Shown here piece by piece: positions 13,059-54,529 of a stretch of 64,000 nt of DNA. The stretch's first letter is position 1. Each line of letters opens with the position of its first letter. The notes under the pieces are model-generated. The model did not search any database, had not been told where the DNA came from, and was given only the letters and a program-made list of their open reading frames with translations. The DNA comes from Planctomycetaceae bacterium (GTDB lineage Bacteria; Planctomycetota; Planctomycetia; Pirellulales; UBA1268), in NCBI GenBank assembly GCA_011523305.1, contig WTHB01000152.1, positions 100,270-164,269 on the forward strand, read 5' to 3'. The translations under genes were made by a program, and so were the position numbers.

Positions 13059-14903
13059 TCAGCGGATTGACCGCATCCTCGCGAAGTTTGGCCATGAGGG
13101 CAATTGCAACTCACCGAAAACAGGTAGTTTTACGGTCAGATGCCAAGCAGCAGGCACCATGTGAGGCCAGAAAATCACCATGGCCCGGCCCACCAGGAGC
13201 CGTCGATCGACATAGTGCACGTCAATCCAGAGCCGCCCATCTTTGCTGGCAGCTGAATTATCCCCAAGCACAAAGAACTGATCGGACTCAAGCGGAAAAC
13301 TGAGGATTGGCTCGTCCCGAATCTCCCCCCGCAAGCCCACACCGACGGCTCCGATGTAGTAGCCATCCCGGAGCACCTTGAGGGCTGAAACCTGCACCTC
13401 GGCCGAACTGTCAGTCCCGGTCACCGTGATCCCAACCGGGGCGAGATCAGATGACTGGTCATCGCCCGGTGTGACCGGTGTGAGCCGGGGCGTTGCTGCC
13501 GCAGCCACGGCGAGCGGGGTCTCCCAGACCACCGGCGTCGCTGCCGGCCGATAGGCGCCATCCACAAACAGCCGCAGTTCATCATCGACATTGGCAACGA
13601 GAACCTGCCAGGCACCACAGCCCCGCACGGACGTCTTCGCCTGACTTGTCGTCCCATCGGCCGCCGTCAGGTCGGCCCGACCGGTCGCCAGATCAAACTC
13701 ACAGCGATGCCGCTTGCCACCATCAACCAGATCGATCGTCACGCGGCCGCTGGCAGCACGGCTTTCCAGTCGGCAGGAGACGGCAAGGTCACCCACCCAA
13801 TGCCCGGTTGAATGAATGGCGTTGTAGGCCTGAAAGTCATCGACTGCTGTCGGCCGCACCCCCTGCCGAAGCCCGAGACCGAGTCGGGCCTCTTTCCAGT
13901 CTGTTGCAGACGGGCTGATATGCCGGAATCGCAGGCTGGCTGAGGCACCGGCCGGACATGTGGTAGTGAACCGCCGACGCTGGTCACCTGCTTGCCAGCG
14001 TGTCGCGTCAGCAGCCGGGTCCGTCCAATCGATCCAGGCGGCAGGCCAGCCTTCCCGCTGCAGCACCGCTGCTGGGTGATCACTGTCATGCACCGTCTGC
14101 AGCATGGCCCGCATGACAGCGGGCGGCTTACGGGCAATGGTAGGTGCTGCCCCCTCGCGGCTGGTCCAGATATCACCACCGGCGATGCTGACCGTCTCAC
14201 CCGGCAGCCCAACCAGGCGTTTGATGTAGTTGGTGTCGGCATCTTCGGGATACTTGAAGACCACCACATCCCACCGCTGGGGATCGGTGAAATCGTAGGC
14301 GAACTTGTCGACCAGAATCCGATCACCGCTGTAAGACGGATAGCGGGCGTCGTACTGAACACCAGGCCCCTGGCCATCAATCAGTTTCATCAGGTTGCCG
14401 CAATTCGGGCATGTGGCCGAGGCCACCATCTTGCCAGCCAGTCGCAGCTTGAGCATTGCCAGCTTGCCGTCGGGCGCCTCCAGATCAGCCAACTGCTGTC
14501 GGGCCACCTCCCGCTGCTGGGGCCCGGCGGCCGTGTCATCAGCCAGCCGGCGGAGGTCAGTCACTTTGCTGGTCAGCCGGGATAGTTCGGTGCGGAAGGT
14601 CTGCGACTGATCGTCTTCCTCACGGCTGGCCCCAGCCTGAAAGTTGAATCCACACTCACTGCAGTCAAGATCCTTGTGCCGGCCCATCAAGGTGGGTGCC
14701 ATGGAGCCGGTCGGAATCACGAAGGCCTCCGCCTGGAAGGCTCGAAAGAGCAACGCCATCGTGAGGGCAATGATGATCGACTCGACCGTCTCACGGCCGA
14801 ACCCCAGCGGATTGCGAACAATGTCATTCCGCCGTGGGCCGTGGTCGGCTGCCTCTGGGGCAGTCTGGCTGCTGGTAGTCAGCGAATCCGTCGGCTGCGT
14901 CAT
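13059..14903 (-). CDS. lepB: Signal peptidase I (S26 family), long form with Zn-ribbon/coiled-coil insertion
   Basis: Box B is IPTGSMAPTL (Ser nucleophile), box D is YIKRLVGLPGETV (Lys) and box E is GDNSAASKDGRLW. The CSEC...CPNC pair is separated by a helical segment. Confidence 0.85.
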   Translation of the reverse strand: MTQPTDSLTTSSQTAPEAADHGPRRNDIVRNPLGFGRETVESIIIALTMALLFRAFQAEAFVIPTGSMAPTLMGRHKDLDCSECGFNFQAGASREEDDQSQTFRTELSRLTSKVTDLRRLADDTAAGPQQREVARQQLADLEAPDGKLAMLKLRLAGKMVASATCPNCGNLMKLIDGQGPGVQYDARYPSYSGDRILVDKFAYDFTDPQRWDVVVFKYPEDADTNYIKRLVGLPGETVSIAGGDIWTSREGAAPTIARKPPAVMRAMLQTVHDSDHPAAVLQREGWPAAWIDWTDPAADATRWQAGDQRRRFTTTCPAGASASLRFRHISPSATDWKEARLGLGLRQGVRPTAVDDFQAYNAIHSTGHWVGDLAVSCRLESRAASGRVTIDLVDGGKRHRCEFDLATGRADLTAADGTTSQAKTSVRGCGAWQVLVANVDDELRLFVDGAYRPAATPVVWETPLAVAAAATPRLTPVTPGDDQSSDLAPVGITVTGTDSSAEVQVSALKVLRDGYYIGAVGVGLRGEIRDEPILSFPLESDQFFVLGDNSAASKDGRLWIDVHYVDRRLLVGRAMVIFWPHMVPAAWHLTVKLPVFGELQLPSWPNFARMRSIR

Positions 14904-33500: not shown

Positions 33501-33559
33501 CAGACAACCTCCCTGCGCAGACGACCAGGCCGCCTCCGCTGACGGCTGTCGGGGGGAGA

Positions 33560-34063
33560 TTAGGGACCCGGCGGAGGGGACGCAAGATCGGCCGAGGCCG
33601 ATTCAGCCGCCCTGTCAGCCCGCCACAGCATGGCCACGGCCAGGACCAGCCGAAGCGTCCAGGCGATGGTTCGAATCCAGTTGGAATCGACCAGGAACCG
33701 ATGCGTTGCCGTATCCCAGCCGGCAGAAAGCCGCAGATGGCAGGGCACCTGCAGCAAAAACGTGCTGGCCCAGATGCCGGCCAGCAGCACCGCCCCTGCG
33801 AGGGGCATCCCGATGCCAAGCCCGCGGGGCCGTCGGACGAGCAGCCAGGCCGCCACCATGCCCTCGGTGAGCATCGGCGGAATCACCACGGGACCGGTAC
33901 GGGCTCGATGGGCCTGCTCCCAAGCGCCAAAGGTGTCGTGGGGCCAGCCCTCCATCAGCGGATAGTGGACCACCTGCACAAACCAGATCAGGCCGGTCAT
34001 GCAGCCGGTAGCGACGAGTTGCACGATCAGCGGCCAACGGCCAGCAGAAGCGGGGGATGGCAT
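33560..34063 (-). CDS. Integral membrane protein, DUF1772-like (tentative)
   Basis: Four hydrophobic helices. FVQVVHYPLM...W....H resembles DUF1772/anthrone-oxygenase-like membrane proteins. Its start shares one nucleotide with the upstream stop (TGATG). Confidence 0.5.
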   Translation of the reverse strand: MPSPASAGRWPLIVQLVATGCMTGLIWFVQVVHYPLMEGWPHDTFGAWEQAHRARTGPVVIPPMLTEGMVAAWLLVRRPRGLGIGMPLAGAVLLAGIWASTFLLQVPCHLRLSAGWDTATHRFLVDSNWIRTIAWTLRLVLAVAMLWRADRAAESASADLASPPPGP

Positions 34064-48424: not shown

Positions 48425-49336
48425 ATGACCAGCTATTCCCTCACACACCTCCGGCAACTCGAAGCCGAAAGCATTCACATCATCCGAGAGGTGGCTGCCG
48501 AGTTTGACAACCCGGTCATGCTCTACTCTATCGGCAAAGATTCGGCCGTCATGGTCCGTCTGGCTGAGAAGGCCTTTGCCCCGGCCAAGCCCCCCTTCCC
48601 GCTGATGCACGTCGACACGACCTGGAAGTTCCAGGACATGTACGACCTGCGGGACAACTACATCGCCAACGAACTCGGCTTCAAACTGATCGTCCACACA
48701 AATGAAGAGGGCCGGGCTCAGGGCATCAACCCGATCGATCACGGCAGCAAGGTCCACACCGATGTCATGAAGACGCAGGCCCTGCGGCAGGCACTCGACA
48801 AGTATCGGTTCGACGCTGCCTTCGGTGGAGCCCGTCGTGATGAAGAAAAGAGCCGAGCCAAGGAGCGGGTGTTTTCCTTCCGAGATGAGTTTCACCGCTG
48901 GGACCCCAAGAACCAGCGGCCCGAACTCTGGAACCTCTACAACACCAAGGTCAAAAAGAACGAAAGCATCCGAGTCTTTCCGCTCTCCAACTGGACCGAA
49001 CTTGACGTCTGGCAGTACATCCACCTCGAGCAGATTCCGATCGTCCCCCTCTACTTTGCCGCCGAGCGACCCATCGTCTGGCGAGATGGCGTGATGATCA
49101 TGGTGGACGATGATCGGCTGCCACTGAACCCGGGAGAGCAGCCCGAAATGCGGCGGGTTCGTTTCCGCACCCTCGGATGCTACCCGCTCTCTGGCGCCGT
49201 CGATTCCAATGCAACAACCTTACCTGAGATCATCCAGGAAATGCTGCTGACCACCTTCTCCGAACGGCAAGGTCGATTGATCGATGTTGACGAGGCCGGC
49301 TCCATGGAGAAGAAGAAAAAGGAAGGGTATTTCTAG
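48425..49336 (+). CDS. cysD: Sulfate adenylyltransferase subunit 2 (CysD)
   Basis: [31 protein letters not shown] (PP-loop SxGxDS), [24 protein letters not shown] and the C-terminal KKKEGYF. Confidence 0.95.
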
Positions 49337-49460
49337 TTTTACGCGACCGGGGCCATCCCTGGCACCCGGTCGCTTGGGGTCGGCGAACAGAACGCCAAGG
49401 GTTCTGTCATCGACCACCCGGCTTCCGGCCGGGGCGAGAGCCAGTTTCACGCGTCCGGGC
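49337..49460 (+). repeat. Structured intergenic repeat element, copy A (three hairpins, flanked by TT(T/C)ACGCG direct repeats)
   Basis: It starts directly after the cysD TAG. Hairpins lie at 49343-49373, 49378-49415 and 49417-49433. By hand count, 84 of 102 aligned columns are identical to the reverse complement of 52592-52694. The rest of each interval is the only partly conserved 3' repeat. Confidence 0.7.
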
Positions 49461-49497
49461 CTATCTATTCACACGTTTTCGCCGACCCAACCACATC

Positions 49498-51432
49498 ATG
49501 TCCCATCAGTCCAGCCTCATCGCCACCGACATCGACGAATATCTCAACCAGCATGAGCAGAAAGAATTGCTGCGATTCATCACCTGCGGCAGCGTCGATG
49601 ATGGTAAGAGCACGCTGATCGGTCGGCTCTTCTACGAGTCGAAAATGATTTACGAAGACCAGCTCGCCGCCATCAAAAAAGATACGTCCCGCTATGGAAC
49701 CACCGGCGAAGAGGTCGACCTCGCCCTGTTCACCGATGGCCTCGAAGATGAGCGGCAGCAGGGCATCACGATCGATGTCGCCTACCGCTACTTTTCAACC
49801 GACAAGCGGAAGTTCATCATCGCCGACACGCCCGGCCACGAGCAGTACACCCGCAACATGGCCACGGGGGCCTCAACGGCTGACCTCGCGATCATTCTCA
49901 TCGATGCCCGCCACGGTGTGCTGCCCCAGACCAAGCGGCATTCGTTCATTGTCTCGCTACTGGGCATCAAGCATGTTGTGGTCGCGATCAACAAGATGGA
50001 CATCGTCGACTACAGCGAAGAGGTGTTCGAAACGATTCGCCGTGACTACGTCGATTTCGCCAGCCGCCTCGATCTGCCCGATGTCCACTTCATGCCGATC
50101 TCGGCACTGAAGGGCGACAATGTAGTGACCAACAGCGACAACATGCCCTGGTTCGAGGGTCGCCCGCTGATGACCCTGCTCGAGACCGTTTACATCGGCT
50201 CTGACCGGAACATGGAAGACTTCCGTTTTCCGGTCCAGTACGTCACCCGGCCGAACCTCGACTTCCGGGGGTTCGCCGGGACGATTGCCTCCGGCATCAT
50301 TCGCAAAGGCGATGAGATCATCACCCTGCCCTCCCGCAAAAAAAGCCGTATCAAGTCGATTGTCACCTTCGACGGGGAACTGGACGAAGCCTTCGCCCCA
50401 CAGTCAGTCACACTGACCCTGGAGGACGAAATCGACTCCAGCCGGGGCGACATGATCGTCCGCGCTGGCAACCTGCCAAAGGTCGATCAAAAGTTTGAGG
50501 CGATGCTGGTCTGGATGGATGAAACAGCTCTCGTGCCGGGGAAGGAATATCTCTTCAAGCAGACAAGCAAGGTGACACCAGGCCGGGTGGCTTCACTGCG
50601 GTATCGAGTCGACATCAACACGCTCCACCGCGAGCCGGCACCGACGCTGGGCCTCAACGAGATTGGGCGATGCGGCATCACCCTGGCCGCACCGATTGCC
50701 CACGACGCCTACCGCCGCAACCGGTCGACTGGTGCCTTCATCGTCATCGATCGGCTCACCAACAGCACCGTTGGCGCTGGGATGATTCTCGATCGTGAAC
50801 GGGAAGAAGGCGCCGCCCACTGGGACGACGAACCTGCTGCCGAGGGCCTGACCGCCTCAACCAGTGAAGTCACCGCCGACGAGCGGCAGGCCCGGTTTGG
50901 GCAGCAACCAGTCACGATTCTGCTCACCGGCCTGACCGGGTCGGGCAAGACAACAATCGCCCGGGCCCTCGAACGTCGGCTGTTCGATGACGGCCGGGCG
51001 GTGATGGTCCTTGACGGTCAGGCGATGCGGCTGGGGATCAGCCGTGACCTCGGTTTCTCTGCCAGCGAACGCAGTGAGAACCTCCGGCGGTCCATCGAGG
51101 TGGCACGGCTCGCCAACGAGGCCGGGTTGATTGTGCTGGCCGCCTTTGTCGCACCTGATGAGGCAACCCGGCAGAAGGCAGCGACCCTTGTTGGACCGGA
51201 CAGGTTCCTGACGGTCCACCTGTCCACCCCCGTCGAGGTCTGTCGTCAACGGGATGAGAAGGGGCAGTACGCCAAGGCTGATGCCGGTGAACTGGCGAAC
51301 TTCCCTGGTGTCTCAGCGACGTATGAGGCACCGGAGGCCGCCGACCTGGTTCTCCCGACCGACGAACTGCCGGTCGCCCGCTGTGTCGACGCGATCATCG
51401 ACCTGCTCAACCAGCGGGGCATCCTCGGGTGA
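49498..51432 (+). CDS. cysNC: Bifunctional sulfate adenylyltransferase subunit 1 / adenylylsulfate kinase (CysN-CysC fusion)
   Basis: The N-terminal GTPase has [28 protein letters not shown] and NKMD. The C-terminal APS kinase has [15 protein letters not shown] and [17 protein letters not shown]. Confidence 0.95.
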
Positions 51433-52176: not shown

Positions 52177-52569
52177 TCACCGGCAGCGACAGCACCGCTC
52201 CTCTACCGTCCACTCAAAGCCGGGGACTTCGCGGACCATTTCCCGCTTCACCGGAACTGTCTTGGAGATGACTTTGGCGCATGTCGGCTTCCAGAGCTGG
52301 TACCAAAAGCAGCCACAGTCGTCCCGACCATGATGCTTGCCGCAGAGGCAGCTGGGCCCCGGCAGAATGACGTCTTCCTGCTTCACATCCCAGCAGACTT
52401 TCGTCTTCTCAATCGTCACCGCCTTGGGCACGGGCACCCGCCGGATCTGCTGGCAGCTGCCGCAGCGATCACAGTGGCCATCACGGTTGTCGGGCAGCCG
52501 CTCGGCTGGATCGGCTGCCACGCTGACACTCGCTACGCAAAGAAACACGATTCCCAACACTCGCTTCAT
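52177..52569 (-). CDS. Small exported Cys-rich protein, hypothetical
   Basis: The ATG at 52569 is preceded by GGAGGGAGGGAG. Signal is MKRVLGIVFLCVASVSVAA. The mature ~110 aa contain 12 Cys, including HCDRCGSC, CLCGKHHGRDDCGC and CCRC. Confidence 0.6.
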   Translation of the reverse strand: MKRVLGIVFLCVASVSVAADPAERLPDNRDGHCDRCGSCQQIRRVPVPKAVTIEKTKVCWDVKQEDVILPGPSCLCGKHHGRDDCGCFWYQLWKPTCAKVISKTVPVKREMVREVPGFEWTVEERCCRCR

Positions 52570-52577
52570 TGTGCTCC

Positions 52578-52694
52578 CTCCCTCCGCGTGAATCGCCCCG
52601 GCAGGAGGCCGGGTGGTTGGCAACGGAACCCTCCGGCGTTCCGTTCGCCAACCCCAAGCGGACGGGGGCCATGGATGGCCCCGTCCGCGTGAAA
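52578..52694 (-). repeat. Structured intergenic repeat element, copy B
   Basis: It starts directly after the porin TAG (52697-52695) and ends at the RBS of the Cys-rich ORF. Hairpins lie at 52658-52688, 52615-52653 and 52597-52613. Direct repeats are TTCACGCGGACGGGG and TTCACGCGGAGGGAG. Confidence 0.7.
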
Positions 52695-54365
52695 CTAAAA
52701 CTCTGCCTGAAATCTCGTCCCCACGATGTCAAAGGGCACCGCACCTACGCCCACGTAATTCGGCATGCTGTGAATCCAGTTGAGCTGCACCCGCATCGAT
52801 CGATTCCACCACCAGTTGAGTGCGAGGGTAGATTCATTGAGAACGCCGAACTGGGGTGACGGAGGTGGCCCCGGCAAATTCGTCAGTTCATTTGCTGGAT
52901 TGAGATCACGACATGTCAGATCGAGGTATGACCAACGAAAGGCAACTTCCCAGGCACCCCAACCACGAACACGACCTCTCCGGCCAGTACCGAAAAAGGA
53001 GGTAAACGGATTAACGTTGTAGTCAAAGACCCCGGCCTGCTTGAGATAATCCGCATGCTCACCTGTCAAAAAATATCCGCACTGCATGTATGCGCCTGTC
53101 TGGAGTAATGTTGGTCCACCACGTTGCCTGACGGGCTCAAGCATCGCCTCACTTTGGAAATTGAAAGACCCCCGATTGAAGGCAAGCTCCAAATGGTACA
53201 ACTGAAAATCATCGGCAAGAAATCGACCTGTATCGAGAACCAAGGGTGTGCCTGCTGCGGTGACACCACCACCTGTTAAATCGCCGATGAAAAATTCCGG
53301 GAACGCCTTTGACTGATACGTCTTGGCGAATAACCCAGTCGCACCTTCGCCTCCGATCTGGCTGTAGAGAAATCCGGTGCCGACATGGAGCAGATACCGA
53401 CCCTTGGACGGTTCGTCGTAGTGCACCAAGTGGGTGATCCGCGACGCGAACGACACGCCTCCGTTGTCACCAATTTGGGCACCGTACTGATTGTCTCCGA
53501 ACGTCTTATAAACAGTCTCTAATGCCTGACCACTCCACAACGTGAGCCCAGTCCCGAAAACACTGTATGCCCAACTCGTTCGTTCATCTTCACTCATGGC
53601 ATACGCCATGATGCCTACTCGTCGAAATGGATCAAGTGCTTGGAAAGCCGCTGATCGTTCAAGAAAGTTAAGATGCCGAACGCTCGTCCAACTATCCATT
53701 GTTCCGGGCTGGCGGAACTGGCCAATGCGAATGGTGCCGAGAAAGGGAATGTGCGACTGCTCTCCCCAGACATCAACAAAGCTCGGATGCCCGGGCTGAG
53801 CAAAGTCCATCTCGATGGTGAACGCTGTGAACTCCGTAGGCTTCCCAATTGCTTGGAGACGGGCACGGCGAAAACTAACGCCGTCCTGCATGTCGCCAAA
53901 ATAAGCAATCGCTCGGGCATTCTGACTGTAGAGGCCATCGTCAAGCTGAAAGAATCCGCTCAGACGAACCAGGGGCAGTTTCTCGCCGACTGCTTCCAGG
54001 GCATCAAGCCTCGTCATCAAATTACCGACCTGATTTGGATCAAGGACGGTATCAGTCTGACCAGAGCGGCCTTCGAAAAATTGCCCGGCACCCTGTGCGA
54101 TGTTGCCCGGTTGATCGGGTGCTAAGATGGTGCCTTCACTCTGACTCGCTGATTGTGGTGTGGGGATCTCCTCAGCCGCAAACTGCAGGGCTTCGAACCG
54201 CTCGTCGGCGACCACACTCTCGGGAAGGTGGTCCTCGGGCTGGAAGGCGTCCGCCTCCCGGCTATCGGCCAGAAGCAGACCGATGCCGCAGACTGCCAGC
54301 AGCAGTCCCCGTAGCCATTGCAAGTGCCGTCCCAGCCGTCGCACGAGAGGTGCTCCGCGAACCAT
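52695..54365 (-). CDS. Putative outer-membrane porin (OprO/OprP-like; family assignment tentative)
   Basis: The ATG at 54365 gives signal MVRGAPLVRRLGRHLQWLRGLLLAVCGIGLLLADSREADA. It has an amphipathic beta-strand pattern, aromatic girdle residues and a C-terminal ...GTRFQAEF ending in Phe, typical of beta-barrel OMPs. Confidence 0.7.
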   Translation of the reverse strand: MVRGAPLVRRLGRHLQWLRGLLLAVCGIGLLLADSREADAFQPEDHLPESVVADERFEALQFAAEEIPTPQSASQSEGTILAPDQPGNIAQGAGQFFEGRSGQTDTVLDPNQVGNLMTRLDALEAVGEKLPLVRLSGFFQLDDGLYSQNARAIAYFGDMQDGVSFRRARLQAIGKPTEFTAFTIEMDFAQPGHPSFVDVWGEQSHIPFLGTIRIGQFRQPGTMDSWTSVRHLNFLERSAAFQALDPFRRVGIMAYAMSEDERTSWAYSVFGTGLTLWSGQALETVYKTFGDNQYGAQIGDNGGVSFASRITHLVHYDEPSKGRYLLHVGTGFLYSQIGGEGATGLFAKTYQSKAFPEFFIGDLTGGGVTAAGTPLVLDTGRFLADDFQLYHLELAFNRGSFNFQSEAMLEPVRQRGGPTLLQTGAYMQCGYFLTGEHADYLKQAGVFDYNVNPFTSFFGTGRRGRVRGWGAWEVAFRWSYLDLTCRDLNPANELTNLPGPPPSPQFGVLNESTLALNWWWNRSMRVQLNWIHSMPNYVGVGAVPFDIVGTRFQAEF

Positions 54366-54529
54366 CGACCGCCGCGGCGCAGACCGCAGCTCTACCGGAT
54401 CGTTGCAACCGATCCTGCCTTTTTTATCGGCAGAATCGGCAGGCTCACGCACCTTCTGCCGGTTGGCCTTGCCAAATCGCAAGGAAGACACCAGCAACGC
54501 GACAAACAGGGAAGACTAGGGAAGCCCGG

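Follow-up and report, generated by a model that had tools for sequence, protein, structure and literature searches.

What has come to lie between cysD and cysNC in a planctomycete in which these genes, usually tightly linked, stand 161 nt apart? The question arises in a 64,000-nt stretch of a Planctomycetaceae genome (assembly GCA_011523305.1, contig WTHB01000152.1, positions 100,270 to 164,269 of the forward strand; hereafter the window), where the cysD-cysNC spacer holds a strongly structured element that recurs elsewhere in the same window. A preliminary description, made from the letters alone, had put forward a cis-regulatory RNA, possibly sulfur-related, an mRNA-processing or stability element, or a repeat resembling the repetitive extragenic palindromic (REP) elements. 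The tight linkage from which it started is indeed seen in a relative with a spacer of only 2 nt. In our reading, which we consider likely to be correct, the element belongs to an undescribed family of dispersed, structured intergenic repeats of the Pirellulales, comparable to REPs and bacterial interspersed mosaic elements (BIMEs) or to mycobacterial interspersed repetitive units (MIRUs), and probably forms a hairpin block in operon mRNA. That it is a dispersed repeat without a specific link to sulfur metabolism is considerably more certain than this reading as a whole; effects at the RNA level, which would follow by analogy with known elements, are much less certain.

The window, with a G+C content of 60%, contains two related copies, copy A at 49337-49437 (+ strand) and copy B at 52593-52694 (- strand). 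They are 83.5% identical over 91 nt by blastn and 81-83% identical over 101-104 aligned columns with one 1-nt indel, in agreement with the hand count of 84 identical columns out of 102. An 18-mer of the element matches the window in copies A and B only (0.15 matches expected), and no further copy was detected in the window by a covariance model with filters off, nor in the 9 kb beyond it. Both copies lie on the coding strand and begin directly after the TAG stop codon of the upstream gene, as had been described: copy A follows cysD (TAG at 49334-49336) and precedes cysNC, and copy B follows a Porin_O_P gene and precedes a 130-aa Cys-rich open reading frame (ORF). Copy B is 1 nt longer than copy A and nearer the family consensus. 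Covariance models were built from five copies (R1) and rebuilt from eight (R2), and the three hairpins of each copy, H1 to H3, are as follows.

49337 to 49436, + strand: copy A, one 100-nt unit made up of the lead-in TTTTACGCG and H1, H2 and H3 (R2 model, 106.9 bits, E = 4e-19)
49343 to 49373, + strand: H1 of copy A, 13 bp with one bulge, apex GGCCATCCCTGGC (RNAfold)
49378 to 49415, + strand: H2 of copy A, 15 bp in the family model, apex GAACGCCAAGGGTTC (RNAfold and family alignment)
49417 to 49433, + strand: H3 of copy A, CCCGGC...GCCGGG, 6-7 bp (RNAfold; 83% paired across the family)
52593 to 52694, - strand: copy B, one unit (R2 model, 117 bits, E = 4.5e-21)
52658 to 52688, - strand: H1 of copy B, apex GGCCATCCATGGCC, stem starting 6 nt past the porin stop codon
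52615 to 52653, - strand: H2 of copy B, apex GAACGCCGGAGGGTTC
52597 to 52613, - strand: H3 of copy B, CCCGGC-CTCCT-GCCGGG

RNAfold returns the same three hairpins in both copies, in copy A exactly where they had been placed by eye, with energies of -66.1 and -70.4 kcal/mol and z-scores of -3.4 and -4.0 for A and B, respectively. The H1 stem of copy A starts 6 nt past the cysD stop codon, and the 3' arm of its H2 is degenerate (CATCG in place of TGCCG). Four compensated differences between the copies, noticed earlier, could all be located in the alignment, in columns 10-34 (A:U versus G:C), 11-33 (C:G versus A:U), 45-77 (C:G versus U:A) and 53-70 (A:U versus G:C). Across seven distinct copies, in an alignment that was fitted to the covariance model and is therefore biased towards structure, 91.2% of the stem cells pair, compared with 31-49% when the partner is slid, and double changes are present in 22 of the 34 pairs; none of 500 shuffles reached these values. 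An earlier MAFFT alignment gave the same picture (92.9% paired, 12 double-change pairs). Helix 1 is 95.6% paired with double changes in 8 of its 13 pairs, and helix 2 is 90.5% paired with double changes in 10 of 15. The constraint on pairing that had been deduced from two copies is thus borne out more strongly by the family, whereas the accompanying idea that the loops diverge freely does not hold family-wide: the hairpin tops, GCCATCC(A/C)TGGC in H1 and AACGCC..GGGTT in H2, are together with the linker CTTGG the best conserved parts, and it is the lower stems that covary.

A further argument for selection on the hairpins comes from a second species (locus L011), which carries a diverged copy at the same cys site. 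Between this locus and the window, four-fold degenerate sites of cysD are only 52% identical, and yet H1 and H2 can form in each of them, by way of several double substitutions and, in H1 of L011, with a single mismatched pair, which argues that the hairpins are actively maintained; the two cys-site copies also have a derived CCCT loop in common. Such a constraint on pairing fits RNA function and DNA-hairpin function alike. The opposite strands of A and B fold about equally well (z = -3.1 and -4.1), and the stem pairs are almost wholly of the Watson-Crick type (5 G:T versus 11 A:C mismatches), so that the data do not tell selection on an RNA hairpin from selection on a DNA hairpin.

The element had been described as a single stretch of about 120 to 124 nt. 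A different length follows from near-identical contigs from several samples, obtained by exact look-up of the CysD protein, which are at least 99.8% and mostly at least 99.9% identical to the window. Their cysD-cysNC spacer measures 161 nt in three cases (L003, L005, L006) and 261 nt, with two units, in three others (L004, L007, L008); the extra 100 nt form a second head-to-tail unit (Tandem Repeats Finder: period 100, 2.0 copies, 96% matches). This tandem duplication in sister strains sets the repeat unit at 100 nt (49337-49436), with the layout TT(T/C)ACGCG-H1-H2-H3-GGGGCGA, and the tandem number is polymorphic within one population. The single-unit contig L005 (k141_421684) appears to be a MEGAHIT assembly at k=141, at which collapse of the repeat is unlikely, since the stretch common to both units is only about 71 nt. 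What had been taken for the end of a longer element is the degenerate restart of a second unit, and other apparent partial units were recognised next to both copies.

49442 to 49468, + strand: degenerate second-unit restart, AGTTTCACGCGTCCGGGCCTATCTAT as against the unit start AGTTTCACGCGGACGGGGCCATCCAT (local alignment score 32, reached by 3 of 500 shuffles)
49475 to 49486, + strand: tail segment TTCGCCGACCC, complementary over 11 nt, without mismatch, to the 5' arm of H2 in copy A
52576 to 52592, - strand: partial unit restart of 17 nt after copy B, TTCACGCGGAGGGAGGG, which also supplies the downstream gene with its Shine-Dalgarno region, GGAGGGAGGG (sequence reading)

The segment complementary to the H2 5' arm is found 90 nt further downstream, just before cysNC, and the minimum-energy fold of the whole spacer uses a long-range helix of 49377-49389 with 49475-49487 (+ strand). 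This segment is probably what remains of the H2 3' arm of a second unit after internal deletion and, taken with the restart at 49442-49468, makes the whole 161-nt spacer appear repeat-derived. The partial unit behind copy B (52576-52592, - strand) closely matches the 5' arm of H1. If the first 18 nt past the porin stop codon are blocked in silico, as a stand-in for a terminating ribosome, the H1 3' arm (52658-52670, - strand) pairs with the TTCACGCGGAGGGAGGG Shine-Dalgarno region, a modelled pairing that could serve, at this one locus only, as a translation-dependent switch for the next gene. Two metagenomic contigs break inside the element (L009, which ends at 2356-2427, and L024, which starts at 1-34), the usual behaviour of assemblers at repeats that are multi-copy or polymorphic in copy number.

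Relatives with closely similar CysD proteins differ widely at the same junction:

L014, CysD 87% identical: spacer of 2 nt (TAGGGATG)
L017, CysD 93% identical: spacer of 34 nt, without the element
L012, CysD 88% identical: spacer of 103 nt, unrelated, with small hairpins
L019 and L022, CysD 89% identical: spacers of 116-117 nt, unrelated
L011 and L018, CysD 92-93% identical: spacer of 136 nt with a diverged copy of the element

The element is thus not present in every relative at the cys site, nor is it needed there, and in the window it has split a gene pair that was ancestrally tightly linked, as the 2-nt spacer of one relative indicates. In Pirellulales this junction seems to be a place where sequences repeatedly land or expand. 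L019 and L022 have a conserved spacer in common (L019 11207-11328 and L022 9536-9658, TGAGGCGGCATCACTCCTGCCG...), which is not of this repeat family.

Members of the family also occur at sites that have nothing to do with cysD. With the covariance models, the following copies and remnants were found in related loci:

L011 13496 to 13598, - strand: copy adjoining the hicA stop codon, antisense to hicA (47 bits with R1, 79.9 with R2)
L022 7701 to 7805, - strand: copy between a TopoVI-A gene and a 96-aa ORF, antisense to both (49.6 bits with R1, 84.1 with R2)
L011 15045 to 15114, - strand: remnant of H1 only, in the spacer from a porin orthologue (64% identity) to a Cys-rich orthologue (54%)
L024 1 to 121: end of a unit and part of a second, lying upstream of a homologue (75% identity) of the Cys-rich protein

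Altogether there are six sites in four independent gene contexts (cysD/cysNC, porin/Cys-rich protein, the hicA 3' end, and TopoVI-A/small ORF) in several Pirellulales genomes, with sense placement at four of the sites and antisense placement at two. The window genome accounts for 2 sites (in 73 kb), L011 for 3 (in 16 kb) and L022 for 1 (in 14 kb). Units thus lie in intergenic gaps, often directly after a stop codon and in either orientation, and copies decay into partial units. They can also be arranged in tandem, with a number that changes quickly in the manner of a variable-number tandem repeat. The remnant in L011 occupies the orthologous site of copy B, and in the more distant syntenic loci L025 and L026 the porin-side spacer is only 26 nt. 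At both sense-oriented sites, in two to three species, H1 starts 6 nt past the stop codon. Comparison of an empty site in L019 with the filled one in L022 did not define the insertion boundaries, the flanks being too diverged.

The pattern of similarity among copies is that of a repeat family. Copies A and B within one genome are 0.81-0.87 identical, and copy A and its positional orthologue L011_1 only 0.60-0.75. Moreover, a second subfamily, with H1 of the form GGAAAAAG...CTTTTTCC, links copies L011_2 and L022_1, which are 0.89 identical in H1 although they lie at different loci in different species. That A is more like B than like its orthologue, together with the existence of this subfamily, suggests gene conversion among copies, or their replacement from common sources, and such concerted evolution is characteristic of repeat families. 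The REP-like repeat, one of the candidates of the preliminary description, is supported by the four unrelated gene contexts and by the antisense placement at two of the six sites. The sulfur-related cis-regulator fared badly: copy B lies in a porin operon, near-identical contigs have one or two units at the cys site, and relatives with 87-93% CysD identity lack the element at that site.

Searches beyond these loci gave no hint of a known family. At gathering thresholds Rfam 15 has 0 matches in the whole window and its permissive mode yields noise on both copies, so that the element is, as had been suspected, not a known RNA family as far as Rfam 15 goes. The 22-mer GCTTGGGGTNGGCGAACNGAAC found only chance coding-sequence matches in GTDB representative genomes and JGI metagenomes (L001, L002, L010) and no match in viral contigs; as this pattern is too species-specific, its negatives say nothing on the range of the family. 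No match was obtained with distant blastn against PLSDB plasmids, or at E <= 0.01 with a composite six-frame translation of the tandem units against 5.8 billion proteins. In the literature searched for planctomycete REPs, miniature inverted-repeat transposable elements (MITEs) or stem-loop repeats we found no description of this repeat family.

Which of the established repeat types does it then resemble? REPs are single palindromes of 20-40 bp with a GTAG or CGTC tag and an associated gene for a REP-associated tyrosine transposase, RAYT (PMC3733652). Like the REPs and BIMEs of Enterobacteria and Pseudomonas, the Pirellulales repeats are G+C-rich stem-loops of intergenic regions, including the intercistronic gaps of operons; they too are dispersed, clustered and found in both orientations, here with H1 placed 6 nt past the stop codon. 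Unlike REPs, they have a 100-nt unit with three different hairpins and conserved loops, they have no sequence similarity to REPs, and neither a consistent GTAG or CGTC tag nor, in the roughly 73 kb of the window genome to which this applies, a RAYT was seen. In copy B and in L011, CGTC occurs within the 3' arm of H1, but this is not so in copy A, L022_1 or L011_2, and NTAG stands 6 nt upstream in four of six copies, in three of these as the gene's own stop codon. Membership of the classical REPs or REPINs was rejected because of the unit size, the three hairpins and the lack of a consistent tag. Likewise rejected was membership of the MITEs: the ends are not inverted repeats of each other, and inspection of six copies and their flanks revealed neither terminal inverted repeats nor target-site duplications. 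The short direct repeat seen on the 3' side represents the beginning of the following unit and has one and the same sequence at different loci.

MIRUs are units of 40-100 bp, intergenic inside operons, that form head-to-tail arrays with strain-variable number (PMC3184786), and a short ORF in them, overlapping the neighbouring stop and start codons, keeps translational coupling (PMC3184786, PMC12548453). The repeats described here are similar in their 100-nt period and in the presence of 1 or 2 tandem copies in strains whose identity to the window is at least 99.8%, and differ in that they are dominated by hairpin structure and lack a coupling ORF. Such an ORF was considered and rejected, as the unit length of 100 nt is not divisible by 3 and none of the frames has an ATG, GTG or TTG; in copy B the porin frame is open to a TGA overlapping the downstream ATG, but without a start codon. 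For MIRUs, only one orientation with respect to their flanking genes has been reported, unlike the present repeats, with two of six copies antisense. The BOX elements of Streptococcus pneumoniae, which have a variable number of internal modules and modulate neighbouring gene expression (PMC3184786), offer another parallel. They are comparable in size (about 100-200 nt), in being built of several stem-loop modules dispersed in intergenic regions, and in being transcribed, as we presume the Pirellulales repeats to be; they differ by their A-Bn-C layout and a proposed mobilising insertion sequence (IS), whereas in the Pirellulales it is the entire unit that is repeated, and no element is known that would mobilise it. 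The ERIC/IRU elements of Enterobacteria and the RIME-type elements of Rhizobia are likewise multi-stem-loop mosaics. None of BOX, ERIC and RIME has a sequence relationship to the Pirellulales repeat, and the host phylum differs.

How might such a repeat act where it lies inside an operon? As no promoter-like or terminator-like site was found in or beside the copies, the element would be transcribed as part of the operon mRNA, in which its hairpins (-60 to -70 kcal/mol) might act as REPs and BIMEs do. REP elements stabilise upstream mRNA (PMC12306157, citing Newbury 1987; PMC3184786) and REPs at most 15 nt from a stop codon stall ribosomes in E. coli (PMC12306157, citing Liang et al. 2015; PMC3184786). 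By the same token, the hairpins in front of cysNC could be a barrier to 3'-to-5' exonucleases and so stabilise the upstream cistron, with which the earlier suggestion of an mRNA-processing or stability element is compatible. They might also be an obstacle to the terminating ribosome, because H1 begins only 6 nt past the stop codon, and the insertion would break translational coupling, presumably abolishing an ancestral termination-reinitiation coupling of cysD and cysNC. In combination, these effects would alter how strongly the two flanking genes are expressed relative to each other. Spread and homogenisation of the family would probably proceed via recombination or gene conversion between copies, or via a trans-acting enzyme.

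Several points weigh against this reading of a dispersed repeat family with effects in operon mRNA. Only six sites in four independent contexts were found in about 300 kb of distinct sampled DNA, and a number of tens to hundreds of copies per genome is only a guess, extrapolated from about 1 copy per 26 kb, a density that counts copies not used for sampling in genomes carrying the family. The preliminary description had regarded many copies scattered without strand or gene-context bias as the mark of a plain repeat; the contexts and orientations of the six sites go part of the way towards this. Both window sites are common to another species and look more like old, fixed and possibly host-useful insertions than like actively mobile ones. 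Without a strand signal, selection could be on DNA hairpins. Finally, neither a transposase nor a Y1_Tnp domain was detected in the roughly 40 ORFs of the window or among the genes listed for related loci.

A first alternative is one that we think unlikely without finding it far-fetched: the repeats would be non-autonomous mobile DNA of the REPIN or MITE type, moved by a transposase encoded elsewhere (RAYT or of the IS200/IS605 type) that recognises single-stranded DNA hairpins, with any effect on RNA incidental. Stem covariation and conserved apices would then reflect recognition by the enzyme, and the dispersal of copies in both orientations, the near-pure Watson-Crick pairing without wobble bias on the sense strand, the equal folding of both strands and the conserved apex sequences are all consistent with this. 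So are the 89% identity in H1 of second-subfamily copies from different loci and species, the NTAG before four of six copies, which recalls the GTAG-tagged REPs (PMC3733652), and the breaks of some contigs inside the element. The alternative is weakened by the missing terminal inverted repeats and target-site duplications, by the same lack of a transposase or Y1_Tnp gene in the window ORFs and the related loci, by a 100-nt unit of three different hairpins in place of a 20-40-bp REP, by the age and positional conservation across species of both window insertions, and by the presence of only two copies in 73 kb of the window genome.

Rather improbable, in our judgement, is a host-selected RNA module at many operons, a true cis-regulatory RNA family, as opposed to selfish or neutral DNA, whose conserved loops would dock an RNA-binding protein or RNase, or be processed by it, and so set how strongly adjacent cistrons are expressed relative to each other. 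The persistence of the hairpins at orthologous sites with saturated synonymous sites, the conserved apices on covarying stems and the exact 6-nt distance from stop codon to H1, seen at two sites and in two to three species, argue for it, as does, in a tiny sample, the slightly better folding on the transcribed strand of the two copies that are antisense to their neighbours. It sits badly with the occurrence of both orientations, the different copy number in near-identical strains, the decay of the L011 porin-site copy to H1 only, the absence of the element at both sites in close relatives, and the lack of a sense-strand excess of G:U pairs. A more elaborate form of host selection has, to our mind, a small chance of being right. 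Here an operon-internal RNA module would stall or uncouple the ribosome, block exonucleases and set the cistron ratio, tuned by the tandem number, with translation-dependent control at the porin locus. If this were true, Planctomycetes would possess a variable-number expression rheostat, with a tandem number differing between co-existing strains.

It is very improbable that the element is a sulfur-responsive riboswitch or attenuator controlling cysNC. Its position between cysD and cysNC on the coding strand, its strong structure and the diverged copy kept at the equivalent site in a second species are what such a regulator would lead one to expect, but the element is also found in the porin operon, after hicA and beside TopoVI-A, near-identical strains have one or two units, relatives with 87-93% identical CysD lack it in the cys spacer, no Rfam family matches, and an expression platform for cysNC was not recognised: there is no terminator and no sequestered ribosome-binding site, the start codon being unpaired in the fold of the whole spacer. 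We give equally little credence to a trans-acting small RNA from the antisense strand, for instance one titrating CsrA/RsmA through the GGA in the tetraloop of the H1 apex (GCCAUGGAUGGC on that strand), to which weak antisense matches of RsmW (CsrB clan; the best sub-threshold family in Rfam) on both copies might point (49336-49468, - strand, 20.3 bits, E = 0.13; 52592-52696, + strand, 18.5 bits, E = 0.24), since the scores fall far short of the 52 bits at which RsmW matches are gathered and the likeness is probably chance, each unit has one GGA-loop hairpin only, promoter-like and terminator-like signals are lacking, and copies lie inside operons on the sense strand.

For annotation, the preferred reading of a dispersed repeat family means that a structured, covarying intergenic sequence in Pirellulales is not necessarily a gene-specific riboswitch, and that the family would yield false calls of cis-regulatory RNA wherever two copies happen to be close. 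For planctomycete biology it provides a concrete, well-structured family with strong covariation. The polymorphism of one versus two units could be a strain marker in metagenomes, and the natural strains with one or two units would allow the influence of intercistronic hairpins on operon stoichiometry to be tested, in a phylum for which little RNA biology exists. As this kind of element has long been known in other phyla, the conceptual gain is modest.

The genes that flank the two copies are the following; the other genes of the window are ordinary chromosomal ones (LepA, FtsH, Dxr, RseP, LpxD, LpxI, sulfatases, DUF1559).

48425 to 49336, + strand: cysD, sulfate adenylyltransferase subunit 2 (Pfam PAPS_reduct, E = 3e-55)
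49498 to 51432, + strand: cysNC, fused sulfate adenylyltransferase subunit 1 and APS kinase (Pfam GTP_EFTU, GTP-eEF1A_C, APS_kinase)
52177 to 52569, - strand: 130-aa Cys-rich secreted ORF 3' of copy B (no Pfam family)
52695 to 54497, - strand: Porin_O_P gene, whose TAG stop codon adjoins copy B (Pfam PF07396, E = 8e-22)

CysD homologues carry the name CysD in metagenome-assembled genomes of Pirellulales and are labelled Pirellulales, Pirellulaceae or Planctomycetota. One member of the CysNC cluster, P0161 (762 aa), has an internal duplication of 118 aa (residues ~119-236 repeated), most likely an assembly artefact in its contig. Gene callers place the start of the Porin_O_P gene at about 54344 (549 aa). 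The 130-aa Cys-rich protein, for which 22 homologues were found and which is 54% identical to the L011 protein at the equivalent position, belongs to a small family; it has a signal peptide and many Cys residues (CxxCxxC, CC), and a Porin_O_P gene adjoins in syntenic loci. In L023 1-130 (GCA_022599615.1), a homologue with 92% identity has lost the N-terminal part and is preceded by a wholly different sequence; synteny breaks just inside the gene start, adjoining the position of copy B in the window, which may be a rearrangement at the repeat. Apart from this family, the window contains the 17-mer GTCCCNAATCTCCCCCC twice in inverted orientation, at 13314-13330 (+ strand) and 33551-33567 (- strand), as part of a 36-nt inverted repeat pair that is 78% complementary; the first copy lies within the ORF 13059-14903 (- strand), which has a Peptidase_S26 match, and the second just upstream of an lpxD homologue.

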